This document shows, one piece after another, positions 1,314 through 59,925 of a stretch of DNA of 64,000 bases. The notes under the pieces were generated by a model, which saw nothing but the letters and a program-made list of their open reading frames with translations, was not told the origin of the DNA and did not search any database. Position numbers and translations under genes: made by a program. The DNA lies in the NCBI GenBank assembly GCA_035688075.1, contig DASSNL010000104.1:6924-70923 (forward strand), read 5' to 3'. Numbering within the stretch: position 1 is the stretch's first letter; every line of letters begins with the position of its first letter. Source of the DNA: Gemmatimonadaceae bacterium. Lineage in GTDB: Bacteria > Gemmatimonadota > Gemmatimonadetes > Gemmatimonadales > Gemmatimonadaceae.

Positions 1314-2492
1314 ATGGCAAGTGTGACGTTGGAAGGCGTGCGGAAGGTCTACGAGCACGGCGGTCGCCAGCAGGTCGCGGTGCACGGAGTGGATCTCGAG
1401 ATCGCCGACGGCGAGCTGGTGGTGCTGGTGGGGCCATCCGGGTGCGGGAAGAGCACTACCCTGCGAATGATCGCGGGACTGGAGAACATCACCGCGGGGA
1501 CACTCCGGATAGGCGACCGCGTGGTGAACGATCTCCCGCCGCGCGACCGCGACATCGCCATGGTCTTCCAGAATTACGCGCTCTACCCGCACATGACGGC
1601 GTACGAGAACATGGCGTTCGCGCTGCGGCTGCGTAAGCGTCCCAAGGGCGAGATCGACGAGCGCGTACGCCGTGCCGCGGACATACTTGGAATCGAGGAG
1701 CTCCTCCCGCGCACGCCACGCGCGATGTCGGGTGGCCAGCGCCAGAGGGTCGCGGTAGGTCGTGCTCTCGTGCGCGAGCCCAAGGTCTTCCTCTTCGACG
1801 AGCCGCTCTCGAACCTCGACGCCAAGCTCCGCGTGCAGATGCGCCGCGAGTTCGCGCGCCTGCACAAGCGCCTCGGCGCGACCATGGTGTACGTGACGCA
1901 CGACCAGGTCGAGGCGATGACGCTCGGCGACCGGATCGTGGTGATGAACGAGGGGCGAGTCCAGCAGATCGATACTCCGATGGCGATCTACGAGCGCCCT
2001 CGCAACACCTTTGTCGCTCGTTTCATCGGTACTCCGCCGATGAACCTCATCGAAGGAAACGTGGTGGACGACGGCGCGGTACGCTTCCGCACCGCTGACG
2101 GTGCGCTGACGCTCACTCCCACCCCCGAGTGGGCCGCGCTCCTCACTTCCTACGTCGGCGCTGGCCGCCCCGTGATCCTCGGCGTCCGCCCCGAAGACAT
2201 CTCCATCGCCGACGACGGCAGCGTCGCCCCCGGAACCGACTCCGCTCTCCGCGCGCGCATAGACCTCGTAGAGCCCACGGGAAACGAAGCCCTTCTCTAC
2301 GCCACCGCCGCTGGCCACGACGTAGCCATCCGCACCGACCGCCACACCCTCCCCTCCGTAGGCGCCGAGCTCACGCTCCGCCTGGATCCCCGTCGCGCCC
2401 ATTTCTTCGATGGGGAAAGTGGGGAGGAGGTGGGGAGGAAAGAGGAAGCAGGAAGCAGGAAACAGGAAGCAGGTACCGGCTCCCGCGGGTAA
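1314..2492 (+). CDS. Sugar-type ABC transporter ATP-binding protein (MalK/UgpC/MsiK family), no adjacent permease or binding protein
   Basis: ATG 1314 preceded by GGGAG. Walker [10 protein letters not shown], signature MSGGQRQRV, Walker B VFLFDEPLS, H-loop VTHDQ, and a MalK-type C-terminal domain. The last ~20 codons and the TAA stop (2490-2492) lie inside repeat E1. Confidence 0.9.
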   Translation: MASVTLEGVRKVYEHGGRQQVAVHGVDLEIADGELVVLVGPSGCGKSTTLRMIAGLENITAGTLRIGDRVVNDLPPRDRDIAMVFQNYALYPHMTAYENMAFALRLRKRPKGEIDERVRRAADILGIEELLPRTPRAMSGGQRQRVAVGRALVREPKVFLFDEPLSNLDAKLRVQMRREFARLHKRLGATMVYVTHDQVEAMTLGDRIVVMNEGRVQQIDTPMAIYERPRNTFVARFIGTPPMNLIEGNVVDDGAVRFRTADGALTLTPTPEWAALLTSYVGAGRPVILGVRPEDISIADDGSVAPGTDSALRARIDLVEPTGNEALLYATAAGHDVAIRTDRHTLPSVGAELTLRLDPRRAHFFDGESGEEVGRKEEAGSRKQEAGTGSRG

Positions 2493-2616
2493 GGCCCTCT
2501 CCCCCGAGGTCGTTTACTGCTTCCTGCTTCCTGCTTCCTGCTTCCTTACAGCTCCTGCTTCCTTGCCTTTCCTGCTCTCTGCCGTCTGCCCTCTTCCTTC
2601 CCCTCCTCCCTTTCAC
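2411..2616. repeat. Heptad-armed palindromic intergenic element, copy E1
   Basis: Left arm GGAAGCA GGAAGCA GGAAACA GGAAGCA GGTACC (2444-2477), core CGGCTCCCGCGGGTAAGGCCCTCTCCCCCGAGGTCG, right arm TGCTTCC x4 (2518-2545). Purine-rich (GGGGAGGAGG) and pyrimidine-rich (CCCCTCCTCCC) outer flanks. Confidence 0.9.
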
Positions 2617-2668
2617 CGCGCATCTTCTCTCGCTCGATTTAGAGTTCCGTTTCCCATGGAGGCAGAGC

Positions 2669-3319
2669 ATGGCACGAAGGGAGATATGGATCGGGAAGGC
2701 AGTGGCGCTCGCGGCGCTGCTGGCGGTGGTCGGGTGCGGAGGGGGTGGGGACAGCGCCGCGGACGCGGACACTGCCGTGGCGACGGAGCAGGAGGCAGCG
2801 CCGCAGCCGCAGGAGAGCGCGAGCGCTGAGCAGACCGCTGCGGAGGAGTCCGGGCCGGTCATTCTCACGGCGGATGATCTCGATCGCTACAGGAAGGGGA
2901 GACAGGCCGAGATAGCCGACGTGAAGAAGAAGGTCGCCGCGCTCGCCGCCGCGAAGAATGAAACGGACACGCTGAACGCGCTCGGCGCGCTCACCAACGA
3001 CGCAGAGCGCACTCAGGCGGGAGCCGACGCGGTGGGGATGTCGCTCGCGCAGTACGATCGGCTGACGGACGCGGTGGACCAGGTGCTCGGCGCCTACTCG
3101 ATGACGGAGATGATGCGCAAGAGTCAGGAGGGCGTGGACACCGCCTCGCTTCCCGAGGACGCTCGCGCGCAAGTGCGCCAGAACATGGCCCAGGCCGAGG
3201 AGGGTCTGAAGCGCCTACCCGAACAGAACGTCAAGCTCGTTGTCCCCCACGCCGCCGAGCTCGACTCCCTCCGCCTCCTCCCGGCCGCTCTGGCCCTGAA
3301 GGCCGCGTCGGGAGTGTGA
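2669..3319 (+). CDS. Hypothetical lipoprotein
   Basis: ATG 2669. Signal peptide with lipobox LLAVVG-C. Ala/Glu/Gln-rich mature part; no domain recognised. Confidence 0.6.
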   Translation: MARREIWIGKAVALAALLAVVGCGGGGDSAADADTAVATEQEAAPQPQESASAEQTAAEESGPVILTADDLDRYRKGRQAEIADVKKKVAALAAAKNETDTLNALGALTNDAERTQAGADAVGMSLAQYDRLTDAVDQVLGAYSMTEMMRKSQEGVDTASLPEDARAQVRQNMAQAEEGLKRLPEQNVKLVVPHAAELDSLRLLPAALALKAASGV

Positions 3320-3326
3320 TTTTAAA

Positions 3327-58162: not shown

Positions 58163-58165
58163 TGT

Positions 58166-58334
58166 GAAAAGAAAGCAGAGAGCAGAAAGCAGTGACTGCA
58201 AGGGTTCAGGAGGCAGGGTTCAGGGTTCAGGTACTACCTCGGAGTAGAGATCTTTCCGCCCGAGGCAGTCACTGAACCCTGAACCCTGTAGCTCTGAACC
58301 CTGAGGTCCTCACTGCTTTCTGCTTTCGACTTTC
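58166..58334. repeat. Composite palindromic element, copy E11 (GGGTTCA-type nested in GAAAGCA arms)
   Basis: Outer arm GAAAGCA GAGAGCA GAAAGCA GTGAC, inner arm AGGGTTCAGGAGGCAGGGTTCAGGGTTCAGGTACTAC (identical to E5), core CTCGGAGTAGAGATCTTTCCGCCCGAGGCAGTCAC, inner arm TGAACCC TGAACCC TGTAGCTC TGAACCC, outer arm TGCTTTC TGCTTTC GACTTTC. Confidence 0.9.
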
Positions 58335-59651
58335 TCACTTCCCCTCCGTCAACCGGTGCATCAGCACCGCCGCCCGCTTCGTGAGGGGACCGAGCATGCG
58401 GAGGTCGGCGGTTTCTTTTTCGGTGTGGTCGTCGTGGCCGGAGAGGCCGAGGCCATCGATGGCCATGGGGACCAGGTTCGCCACGAAGGCCACGTCGGCG
58501 GCGCCGGCGCGTGAGGGATCTACGGCTTCCACAGGACCGAAGCCGAGGTCGCGGCTCGCCTGGTCGTACATGGCGAGGAGGCGCTTGTTGCCATCGGTGG
58601 GTGCCATGGGCGGGTAGCCCTCGAGGAAGGTGATCTCGGACTTCGTGTTCGGGAGCGACTTCGACACGATCGTGCGCATCGTCTGCTGCGCGCGCTCGAG
58701 CTGCTCGGGACTGATGGCGCGCAGGTCGCCACCCACCTCCACGTGTTCGGCCACCACGTTGTGCTTCCCAGCTGCCTTGCCCTCGGTCAGCGTGGTGTCG
58801 AGGCCCACCATCGTACCACCAACTATCACGCCGGGGTTGAAGGTCAGATACTTCTCGCTCGAGAGCTGCTTGTAGAATTCATCGAGCACCCGGCTCGCCT
58901 CGAAGACCGCGCCCGCGCCAACGGTCGGCGTGAAGATCTGCGACGAGTGCGCCGGAGTGCCGGTGCTCTTCAGGAGCCACGAGCCCGCACTGCGCCGCGA
59001 GATCACCGCGGTGCGCGGGTCGGCGGCACCGTCCTCGAAGCCGAGCGCCGCCGCTGCGCCATGGGCAGCGTCGGTGAGCGCGCGACGTGCCTCGGAGAGC
59101 GGCGGGCCCGAGTCCTCTTCATCGCCGTCGAATACCACGACGATGTTCATCTTGTCGAGGAGCCCCGCGTCCTTCAGCGCGCGCAGAGCGTACACCACTA
59201 TGACATCGCCGCCCTTCATGTCGATGATCCCCGGCCCACGAGCGGTGGAGTCGTCCAGCCGCTCGAACTTCTGAAACGGACTCTCGGGCGGGAACACCGT
59301 GTCGAGATGGCCGATCAGGACGAGCTTGGGTCCCGGCCCTGGATGCTCTGCGACGAGATGCCCAGCGCGCTCGAAGCCGGACCCGTCGACCCACCGGGTG
59401 GTGAAGCCGAGCGAATCGAACTGCGCGCGGAAGACGTCGCCAACCTGACGCACCCCCGCGAAGTTCATCGTCCCGCTGTTGATGTTCACCACGCGGATGA
59501 GGAGGTCGAGCGCCTCGTCGTTGTGCCTGTCGACCGCGCTCACGATCTTCTGCTCGGCCTTGGAGAGCGCCCTCTTCCCCTGCGCCCCCGCCGGCCCCAC
59601 GATCGCCCCGAGCGCGAGGACGAGTGCTAGTGGTAGAGTTTGTGTACGCAT
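58335..59651 (-). CDS. M20 family metallopeptidase (carboxypeptidase G2-like)
   Basis: Signal peptide. Metal-binding motifs (LIGHLDTVF, DMKGG, FDGDEEDSG) and the M20 dimerisation-domain layout. Confidence 0.82.
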   Translation of the reverse strand: MRTQTLPLALVLALGAIVGPAGAQGKRALSKAEQKIVSAVDRHNDEALDLLIRVVNINSGTMNFAGVRQVGDVFRAQFDSLGFTTRWVDGSGFERAGHLVAEHPGPGPKLVLIGHLDTVFPPESPFQKFERLDDSTARGPGIIDMKGGDVIVVYALRALKDAGLLDKMNIVVVFDGDEEDSGPPLSEARRALTDAAHGAAAALGFEDGAADPRTAVISRRSAGSWLLKSTGTPAHSSQIFTPTVGAGAVFEASRVLDEFYKQLSSEKYLTFNPGVIVGGTMVGLDTTLTEGKAAGKHNVVAEHVEVGGDLRAISPEQLERAQQTMRTIVSKSLPNTKSEITFLEGYPPMAPTDGNKRLLAMYDQASRDLGFGPVEAVDPSRAGAADVAFVANLVPMAIDGLGLSGHDDHTEKETADLRMLGPLTKRAAVLMHRLTEGK

Positions 59652-59664
59652 GGAGGGAAGATAA

Positions 59665-59925
59665 GTGAGAGACAGCAGAAAGCAGAAAGCAGAGGGCAGA
59701 GGGCAGAGGGCAGAAAGCAGAAAGCAGTGAAAACCCTGAGGGTTCGGAACTACAGGGTTCAGAACTACAGGGTTCAGGGTTCAGGTACTACCTCGGGGGA
59801 GTGGATCTCGAGCGTCGGGCAGTTCCTGAACCCTGAACCCTGCCTCCTGAACCCTCGAGCAGTTCCTGCTTTCTGAACCCTCGAGCAGTTCCTGCTTTCT
59901 GCTGTCTGCCTTCTGCTTTCACCCG
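59665..59925. repeat. Composite palindromic element, copy E12 (largest; GGGTTCA-type in flipped orientation inside GAAAGCA/GAGGGCA arms, with a 26-nt tandem duplication)
   Basis: Outer arm GAAAGCA x2 GAGGGCA x3 GAAAGCA x2. Inner left arm has CTAC-interrupted GGGTTCA units; inner right arm is CCTGAACCCTGAACCCTGCCTCCTGAACCCT. The unit CTGAACCCTCGAGCAGTTCCTGCTTT is repeated at 59847-59872 and 59873-59898. Confidence 0.9.

Follow-up and report, generated by a model that had tools for sequence, protein, structure and literature searches.

Palindromic elements with nested heptad arms at gene ends in a Gemmatimonadaceae contig

Introduction

Tandem repeats with a unit of seven nucleotides occur in excess in many bacterial genomes, and where they come from and what they do has gone unexplained since the 1990s. 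The question is raised in a dense form by a 64-kb window of a contig from a soil bacterium of the Gemmatimonadaceae (DASSNL010000104.1; the window is the whole stretch of 64,000 nucleotides analysed here), where twelve long palindromes with arms built of heptads lie between the genes. What kind of element is this, how would it come to occupy these gaps, and what would it do there? An earlier note on the same DNA had classed the palindromes as a REP/BIME-like or MITE-like family (repetitive extragenic palindromes, bacterial interspersed mosaic elements, miniature inverted-repeat transposable elements) that could serve as bidirectional terminators or 3'-end stabilisers. The present analysis covered the window and short contigs of relatives.

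Results

Twelve palindromic elements

Genes were called by codon-position GC and checked with Pfam, and the elements were folded on both strands and compared with dinucleotide shuffles. All twelve elements of the earlier note were recovered where it had placed them. Each was predicted to form one long hairpin of 45-95 bp on both strands, much as the 50-100 bp expected beforehand, with minimum free energies (MFE) from -59 to -170 kcal/mol and z-scores from -5 to -21; the exception was the minus strand of the copy at 36240. The elements, referred to by number or by start position, are the following.

Element 1, 2411-2616, co-directional gap: (AGGAAGC)n arms, reversed type-A core at 2475-2513; MFE -111, z -6.5.
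Element 2, 3327-3425, convergent, occupying the stop-to-stop gap 3320-3425: (AGAAAGC)3, GTGAAC junction, type-A core at 3353-3390; z -10.6.
Element 3, 4493-4688, co-directional gap, beginning at the stop of an AhpC/TSA-like gene: (AGGAAAC)n arms, GGTAAC/GGTACC junctions, type-A core at 4579-4616; z -5.0.
Element 4, 10089-10247, convergent between SusD and aminotransferase genes, exactly spanning the stop-to-stop gap: (AGAAAGC)n arms, reversed type-A core at 10140-10177; z -10.2.
Element 5, 14398-14588, convergent between GGT and amino-acid permease genes: outer (CAGGGTT)n, inner (AGGAAAC)n, type-A core at 14472-14508; z -10.5/-15.7.
Element 6, 24799-24972, co-directional gap: outer (AGARAGC)n, inner (AGGGTTC)4, second centre type at 24874-24904; z -14.4.
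Element 7, 26384-26589, convergent, gap filled: (AGAGAGC/AGAAAGC)n arms, GTGAAAACC inner stem, palindrome centre at 26435-26518; MFE -170, z -20.9.
Element 8, 31505-31735, convergent: (AGGAAGC)n arms, family-B palindrome centre at 31565-31636 (GTCATCCCCGCAAAAGCGGGGACCCATGTT) with perfect 31-nt arms; z -13.6.
Element 9, 33765-33943, divergent gap: (AGARAGC)n arms, composite centre, diverged type-A core at 33869-33907 (core match E 0.0035); z -5.9/-11.2.
Element 10, 36240-36385, co-directional gap between an ABC ATPase gene and the first MacB/FtsX permease gene: the most decayed copy, weak core at 36280-36316; z -4.9 on the plus strand and -1.3 on the minus strand.
Element 11, 58166-58334, convergent, gap filled: outer (AGARAGC)n, inner (CAGGGTT)n, second centre type at 58233-58264; z -15.6.
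Element 12, 59665-59925, divergent gap between M20 peptidase and sigma-54 activator genes: outer (AGAAAGC/AGAGGGC)n, inner (CAGGGTT)n arrays that include 15-nt variants, second centre type at ~59787-59822; z -9.8/-12.1.

The pattern AGRRARCAGRRARCAG, with at most one mismatch, matched 70 times in the window against 0.04 expected, always within the twelve elements, and CAGGGTT arrays gave 10 matches (0.03 expected) in four of them. A period scan that covered 6-12 nt returned 16 arrays in the window, every one of them of period 7, and Tandem Repeats Finder agreed. Together the elements sum to 2,217 nt. They account for 3.5% of the window, and for about 48% of the 4.7 kb in it that is intergenic. 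The density of period-7 arrays was ~250/Mb in the window lineage, compared with 23/Mb at distant esterase loci and 4/Mb in unrelated genomes.

Syntenic contigs carrying 84-95% identical homologues of window proteins were obtained from ENA, JGI, NCBI and Logan assemblies. A scan of JGI metagenomes with the esterase gave relatives of at most 71% identity only, and the nearer relatives came via protein searches. The same heptads, junction and core were present in a 95% relative (L191, L192) and in three soil metagenome-assembled genomes (MAGs) of Gemmatimonadaceae (L006, L019, L021, L060 and L078), two of whose five contig stretches (3.3 and 5.4 kb) held two copies each. A pattern scan of genome contigs with CAGKKAACNGCCTNGGGG was too degenerate; its true matches came to 5 of 110 loci, all from Gemmatimonadaceae MAGs. 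Two chance coding matches were found in viral contigs, and no heptad arrays. An assembly artefact, a concern of the earlier note, was rejected because independent assemblies from all four sources show the same architecture. Nor did any element match an Rfam family at gathering score: in the window the fluoride riboswitch described below alone passed, and the elements gave sub-threshold matches to generic miRNA precursors. The twelve elements are a real, non-coding and dispersed family of palindromic heptad repeats.

Heptads, arms and flanks

Tandem heptads were present as had been described, but the runs contain 2-9 units and not the 3-7 given before. Every heptad type fits the register CAGNNNN (the census pattern itself required CAG), the commonest being CAGAAAG (23 units), CAGGGTT (16), CAGGAAG (13), CAGGAAA (11) and CAGAGAG (11). 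The forms AGAAAGC, AGGAAGC, AGGAAAC and AGAGAGC made up 58 of the 88 counted units and contain no G-tract; a G3 tract was confined to the CAGGGTT arrays of 14398, 24799, 58166 and 59665. The junction units (CAGTGAA, CAGGTAA, CAGGTAC and CAGGAAC) are themselves heptad-like.

The purine- and G-rich arm was 5' on both strands in all twelve copies; matches to the purine pattern were restricted to left arms on the plus strand and to right arms on the minus strand. Arrays can be nested, with AGARAGC outside CAGGGTT in 24799, 58166 and 59665, and with CAGGGTT outside AGGAAAC in 14398. The flanks previously assigned to the element proved to be native sequence in part, and other flanks look like decayed heptads; the C-rich stretch to the right of 24799, for example, is also present at the empty orthologous site of L201. 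A pooled test of heptad purity with distance from the centre revealed no simple gradient, and inside-out growth is therefore claimed for individual copies only.

Centres of the elements

A single ~35-nt core had been proposed for all copies. Its consensus fits seven of the twelve, but the other five have different centres. This type-A core (~38 nt) is found in 2411, 3327, 4493, 10089 and 14398, and in diverged form in 33765 and 36240. Its consensus is ACTGCCTCGGGGGnGAGGGCCCTnCCCCCAGGAGCCGTT and, as noted earlier, it occurs in either orientation. One half (ACTGCCTCGGGG) is nearly invariant and the remainder variable; the consensus reads ACTGCCTCGGGG..GAGCCG and has no GTAG head. A second centre type, TACCTCGG..GAGATCTC..CCGAGGCAG, is common to 24799, 58166 and 59665. 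The centre of 26384 is a perfect 40+40-nt palindrome and that of 31505 a different perfect palindrome of 31+31 nt. A search with nhmmer that covered the window and ~1.6 Mb of fetched loci revealed no type-A core without heptad arms, no solo core and no second core within one element.

The type-A core had also been taken for an imperfect hairpin. A structure of 12 pairs could be drawn by hand, but only 68.4% of its cells were paired, no better than in shuffled controls (67.8%), and no covariation was seen. The alifold consensus energy was -0.85 kcal/mol. With negligible energy, and with pairing and covariation no better than in shuffles, a conserved RNA fold of the core was rejected.

Two observations on the non-type-A centres may be added. 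'Family B' palindromes (GTCATCCCCGC-NNNN-GCGGGGATCCATGTT) lie at the centre of some heptad elements, and were found in the window and close relatives of it only:

Window, 31565-31636.
L191, 6845-6913.
L193, 6737-6762.
L194, 11230-11252.
L199 junctions, in tandem runs of ~4 copies.
L200 junctions, as ~6 shorter partial units (CGCGGGGATGAC).

The palindrome at 26435-26518, the centre of element 7, has 40-nt arms that are 100% complementary around a 4-nt spacer, and no copy of it was found in any fetched locus. Long perfect palindromes are usually unstable in bacteria.

Position relative to genes

The distribution reported earlier was borne out by the gene calls. Elements occupy six of the seven non-overlapping convergent junctions, four of ~15 co-directional gaps (2411, 4493, 24799 and 36240) and two of ~5 divergent gaps (33765 and 59665), an enrichment at convergent junctions compared with other gaps (6/7 vs 6/20, Fisher p = 0.02). 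The single empty convergent junction is 43837-43871, beside a Uma2 endonuclease gene. Stop-to-stop gaps are frequently filled, as the earlier note had it, and elements begin 0-7 nt past the stop codons. Plain hairpins are used in other gaps of the window, at the start of 52075-52330 and at 22740-22835. No common functional theme was apparent among the flanking genes.

Three genes obtain their stop codon from within an element. The open reading frame (ORF) of a MalK-like gene, 1083-2492, runs through the left arm of element 1 and stops at a TAA inside the core. The TOBE domain of the protein ends at amino acid 442 (nt 2409), and homology to the L194 and L196 orthologues stops at HFFD, followed by a 24-residue tail from the left arm. 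In the PAD_porph ORF, 23744-24910, the last 37 codons and the stop are supplied by element 6, the Pfam domain ending at amino acid 351 (nt 24797). The NlpC/P60 ORF, 30961-31548, ends at the TGA of the GCAGTGAAC junction in element 8. The C-terminal tails of the three proteins are ~14-37 residues long and rich in Gly, Glu, Lys, Arg, Ser and Gln. PAD_porph of L200 likewise ends at the TGA of a GCAGTGA junction.

Orthologous junctions in relatives

Orthologous junctions were compared in nine related contigs in which a neighbouring protein is 84-95% identical. The same site was found to be filled by an element, empty, or provided with a plain GC hairpin. At the SusD/aminotransferase junction (J1, element 4) an element was present in the window, L191, L192, L194, L196 and L197, with differing content:

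Window: AGAAAGC arms, core in one orientation.
L191 and L192 (95%): AGGAAGC arms, core flipped.
L194 (87%): AGGAAAC/AGGCAAC arms, family-B palindrome centre.
L196 and L197 (84%): two nested arrays, 12-nt centre, no core.

L196 and L197 differ here by exactly one heptad. At the GGT/permease junction (J2, element 5) the window carries an element, as do L191, with a family-B centre, and L193, with GCGGGGG heptads; in L194 the junction is a 46-nt gap and in L196 it holds a plain GC hairpin. The sites of elements 4493, 3327 and 2411 (J3-J5) are filled in the window only. In L194 and L196 these sites show either a plain hairpin rich in GC or nothing at all; among the relatives, plain hairpins were seen at J2, J3 and J4, and heptads are absent from the L196 gap orthologous to element 3. 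The sites of 24799 and 26384 (Ja and Jb) are filled in the window, L198, L199 and L200 with differing inner modules, and are empty in L201, where they measure 93 and 23 nt. L200 also carries a related element at the site of 33765 and a decayed counterpart at that of 36240. Arms can be unequal, as in L078, with ~14 heptads in one and ~5 in the other.

Similarity between elements did not follow orthology. Element 24799 scored 99 and 89 against its paralogues 58166 and 59665, and 62 and 39 against its orthologues. Jb of L200 scored 81 and 71 against window paralogues and 14 and 39 against its orthologues. Within L198, Ja and Jb scored 99 against each other; their inner module and centre are the same but oppositely oriented. 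Core identity was 79% between orthologues and up to 85% between paralogues or across genomes. Content is exchanged between loci within a genome. These comparisons show a fast-evolving family: sites are gained and lost, modules are swapped between loci, heptads slip, and centres are flipped or replaced.

In distant relatives the junction behind a 59-71% identical esterase varies widely (80 loci), from gaps of 0-17 nt at one extreme to tandem-repeat palindromes of 60-200 nt at the other, with units such as GTGGCAA, GGTGATA, TAGGGGT/CCCCTAA and GCTGACG. In L135, L124 and L115 the units are 8 nt long. The units of L132 (AGTGGCG/ACTCGCC) and L134 (TAGGGGT/CCCCTAA, including stop codons) resemble duplications of both gene ends. 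A contig of Hymenobacter, L018, has one heptad-armed palindrome. In distant Gemmatimonadota-like soil contigs and in the Hymenobacter MAG, palindromes with tandem-repeat arms of unrelated 7-nt units, in some cases 8-nt units, lie at gene ends:

L116, 1609-1717.
L132, 1727-1819.
L134, 5540-5610.
L135, 5412-5634.
L124, 9700-9870.
L018, 1566-1676.
L165, 1013-1144, breaking the rule that the G-rich arm is 5'.

Palindromes with heptad arms are therefore widespread as a habit in this group. In other soil contigs, L123 (after 2405), L113 (after 11284) and L143 (after 2881), the esterase junction is taken up by a further REP-like palindrome (..GTCATCCTGAGGAGCGCAGCGACGAAGGA.. and its relatives), and the junction attracts several unrelated palindrome families.

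Discussion

Probable spread between loci and a probable hairpin role at transcript ends

Taken as a whole, the elements are judged, by a small measure, to be probably a lineage-specific, non-coding palindromic family that spread by copying between loci and acts as a bidirectional hairpin at transcript ends. Copying between loci would both spread and homogenise the family, and could proceed by transposition into hairpin centres or by ectopic gene conversion seeded by the shared heptads. In place, the elements would be reshaped by heptad slippage and by intramolecular template switching in quasi-palindromes. Template switching of this kind is an established mechanism, by which arms stay complementary with no need of selection. 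The family would not be maintained by selection for a single RNA sequence.

Transcripts of the flanking genes, arriving from either side, would include the element at their 3' end and form an RNA hairpin of 45-95 bp. This hairpin would end transcripts in both directions, by termination or by blocking 3' exonucleases, and so replace plain hairpins. Such a role is considered the most likely one because the elements sit where plain GC hairpins sit elsewhere, and because their GC-rich centre stands between an arm rich in A on the 5' side and one rich in U, (GCUUUCU)n, on the 3' side. Given that gene 3' ends in relatives hold ordinary GC-rich hairpins, the function as terminator or 3' stabiliser suggested in the earlier note is a reasonable one. 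The elements place a GC-rich stem-loop immediately downstream of a gene. U-rich arm sequence comes directly after the inner hairpins and gives terminator-like matches within the elements. In positions 1-20000, 7 of 15 terminator-like sites fell inside elements, in a simple consensus scan that is barely informative.

A number of observations weigh against this combined reading. With respect to transcript ends, no U-tract was found at the base of the full hairpin, where C-rich sequence follows; the sense strand folded better in six of nine co-directional cases (p = 0.5); two copies lie in divergent gaps; and the decayed copy 36240 lies between ABC ATPase and permease genes, possibly within an operon. 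Relatives have gaps of 0-23 nt at the same convergent junctions, and therefore no hairpin is required there. With respect to mobility, no transposase, RAYT or parent element was present in the window or among the called genes of related loci, and no Y1_Tnp domain was found by Pfam in 30 window proteins or in those called genes. Flanking direct repeats or target-site duplications were seen at none of the 12 copies, nor in the filled-versus-empty comparison with L201, where a divergence of ~12% limits resolution. Conserved outer termini were absent, the ends consisting of variable decayed heptads or native sequence and the conserved parts lying inside. The cores are only 70-85% identical, and a recent burst is therefore not indicated. 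Any copy number for the whole genome is extrapolated from one 64-kb window and the short contigs of relatives.

Alternative explanations

The main rival is growth in situ, in which terminator hairpins acquire arms by heptad slippage and hairpin-templated correction without any movement between loci, likeness being a product of mutational bias. It is rather unlikely. Growth in situ accounts for the distant relatives, where esterase junctions hold palindromes of unrelated units, some resembling gene-end duplications; the one-heptad polymorphism between L196 and L197 and the lack of a transposase or target-site duplication fit as well. It does not account for the shared core or for the greater similarity of paralogues than of orthologues. 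The ~38-nt core with its near-invariant ACTGCCTCGGGG half recurs at seven window loci and in four other genomes, and identical inner modules stand at two L198 loci in opposite orientation. Because of the shared core, the paralogue-over-orthologue likeness and the repeated L198 modules, mutational bias is insufficient.

Little weight is given to a more speculative reading. An unrecognised activity would copy a palindromic module of heptads and centre specifically into the apex of an existing hairpin or cruciform, so that gene-end terminator hairpins would progressively become layered heptad palindromes in the manner of Russian dolls. The activity could be that of a structure-specific nuclease, with ectopic copies serving as templates for repair, or of a single-strand transposase so far unrecognised. 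An OB-fold protein that binds single strands, for instance a cold-shock protein, may have a footprint matching the 7-nt period, and would then tune read-through at these hairpins.

That a global regulator or nucleoid protein binds the heptads in DNA as iteron-like sites is distinctly improbable. The CAG common to every heptad type would suit such a protein (with the census pattern again requiring it), and the conservation of the ACTGCCTCGGGG half-core without covariation fits recognition of sequence, not structure; some copies do lie in divergent, promoter-containing gaps, and sites described in Geobacter metallireducens provide a precedent (PMC2700814). However, both orthologous sites and the arms differ freely in heptad sequence and number, relatives have lost copies with nothing in their place, the bias is strongly to gene 3' ends and not to promoters, and the flanking genes have no functional theme.

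A structural or regulatory role as non-B DNA (G-quadruplex, i-motif or cruciform) is very unlikely. (CAGGGTT)n arrays of at least 4 units show the G3N4 quadruplex pattern (24799, J2 of L191, L078), and the G-rich arm is always 5' as in the 'convergent' pairs of Xanthomonas (PMC4692102), but the majority heptads (58/88 units) have no G-tracts and a full-length complementary arm would out-compete a quadruplex. Structured non-coding RNA genes (small RNAs or cis-regulatory RNAs) with a specific conserved fold are highly improbable, despite the very stable predicted folds and the transcription of the elements that would occur within 3' untranslated regions, since Rfam gave only the sub-threshold miRNA-precursor matches, the core lacked covariation (68.4% vs 67.8% in shuffles; alifold -0.85 kcal/mol), its orientation relative to the sense strand was mixed (4 forward and 3 reverse in co-directional cases) and folding showed no strand preference.

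Comparison with known repeats

Xanthomonas campestris and X. axonopodis contain 186 GGGAATC arrays in ~5 Mb, most of them in inverted 'convergent' pairs, of which there are 70-75 (Rehm et al. 2015, PMC4692102). These arrays have from 2 to more than 20 units, follow the upstream ORF at a mean distance of 28 nt, are rare between divergent genes, and differ in length and sequence between close species; they have no known function and were read as non-B DNA (PMC4692102). Nostoc PCC 7120 has GGGGA(C/T)T repeats (PMC4692102). The elements of the window resemble those of Xanthomonas in their tandem 7-nt units, in the inverted convergent pairs with the G-rich strand 5' and in their intergenic position behind ORFs. 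They differ in that the dominant heptads are purine-rich CAGRRRR without G-tracts, a G3-4 tract in every heptad as in Xanthomonas being absent, in that the arrays are nested and in that the arms enclose a ~38-nt conserved centre or other palindromes. Density also differs, at 12 elements in 64 kb compared with ~186 arrays in ~5 Mb, and no sequence similarity was seen.

In Geobacter metallireducens, paired 'class 3 global regulator binding sites' of five MTYCTGA repeats have been drawn as hairpins (Aklujkar et al. 2009, PMC2700814). Like the present elements these are multicopy and intergenic, with ~5 tandem heptanucleotides in opposite-strand pairs. They were interpreted as regulator sites, and the account of the sites in that paper (PMC2700814) reports no central core, nesting or gene-end bias. 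By that description the Geobacter heptad, unrelated to those of the window, stands apart.

REPs are 20-40 nt long, have a GTAG-type head, pair up as inverted doublets (REPINs) and go together with a RAYT gene (Bertels and Rainey 2011, PMC3116915). With the REP, BIME and REPIN families of Pseudomonas and E. coli the window elements share short imperfect palindromes, a non-coding, extragenic position mostly behind genes, the capacity for mRNA hairpins able to stabilise 3' ends, and evolution as a family within a genome. They differ in having microsatellite arms and one asymmetric core per element. The assignment to REP/BIME-like or MITE-like families could not be upheld: neither a GTAG head on the type-A cores, paired REPs, conserved termini nor a target-site duplication was found, and no transposase or RAYT was in reach, within the 64-kb window and the short contigs.

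Foldback (FB) transposons of Drosophila are kilobase-sized, some with coding sequence, and make target-site duplications. The window elements are like them in their long inverted arms of short tandem repeats, in the differences in number between arms and in the variable centre, and unlike them in that FB transposons are eukaryotic, kilobase-sized and flanked by target-site duplications. In cyanobacteria, STRR heptamers reportedly lie in intergenic DNA (Mazel is said to have described them in 1990), and small dispersed repeats are said to be nested within heptamer arrays and within each other (reportedly Elhai et al., in 2008). Intergenic tandem heptamers with nested small repeats would be a feature in common; the cyanobacterial arrays belong to another phylum, have other sequences and are mainly direct, and are not known to be obligatorily inverted around the insert. 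Heptamer arrays are abundant in Beggiatoaceae and cyanobacteria (PMC4679880).

The elements are heptamer repeats of a kind already known from other bacteria, and poorly understood. The earlier view that the architecture is not among described repeats was too strong, as inverted tandem heptamer pairs are known a short way behind stop codons in Xanthomonas (PMC4692102) and, from the description of its sites, in Geobacter metallireducens (PMC2700814). New here are the purine-rich CAGNNNN heptads, the nested arrays, the conserved asymmetric centre that flips or is swapped, the exchange between loci and the density.

The clade offers a dense and tractable case, with filled, empty and plain-hairpin states in close relatives and modules exchanged between loci, in which it can be tested how such palindromes arise and spread and whether transcripts are terminated or stabilised. 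The elements lengthen at least three ORFs and confuse the calling of gene ends. They probably break short-read assemblies, and would serve as hypervariable strain markers for Gemmatimonadaceae.

Other features of the window

Other features of the window, on the strands indicated, are:

3752-4492 (+), AhpC/TSA-like (peroxiredoxin-type) gene.
28695-29177 (-), crcB.
29185-29251 (-), fluoride riboswitch (RF01734, 61.7 bits, E 1e-14), directly upstream of crcB.
29318-29761 (-), adjoining DUF190 gene.
36468-57250 (+), eight tandem ORFs of 800-830 amino acids, after HlyD-like and ABC ATPase genes.
43872-44588 (-), Uma2-family putative restriction endonuclease gene.

The first of the eight tandem ORFs, the only one tested, has MacB_PCD and FtsX domains, and the row is broken by the Uma2-family gene on the opposite strand. 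The AhpC/TSA-like gene has an in-frame TGA at 4154-4156, at the position of the catalytic Cys (..FFYKARTKG*TVQMEAY..), with profile positions 1-39 of the Pfam match before the TGA and 46-123 after it. The TGA and its context are conserved in the 84% relative L196, and a stem-loop (4171-4192, GGCGTAC-CGTGATCA-GTACGCC) lies 15 nt downstream. The gene probably encodes a selenocysteine-containing peroxiredoxin with a selenocysteine insertion sequence (SECIS) element.

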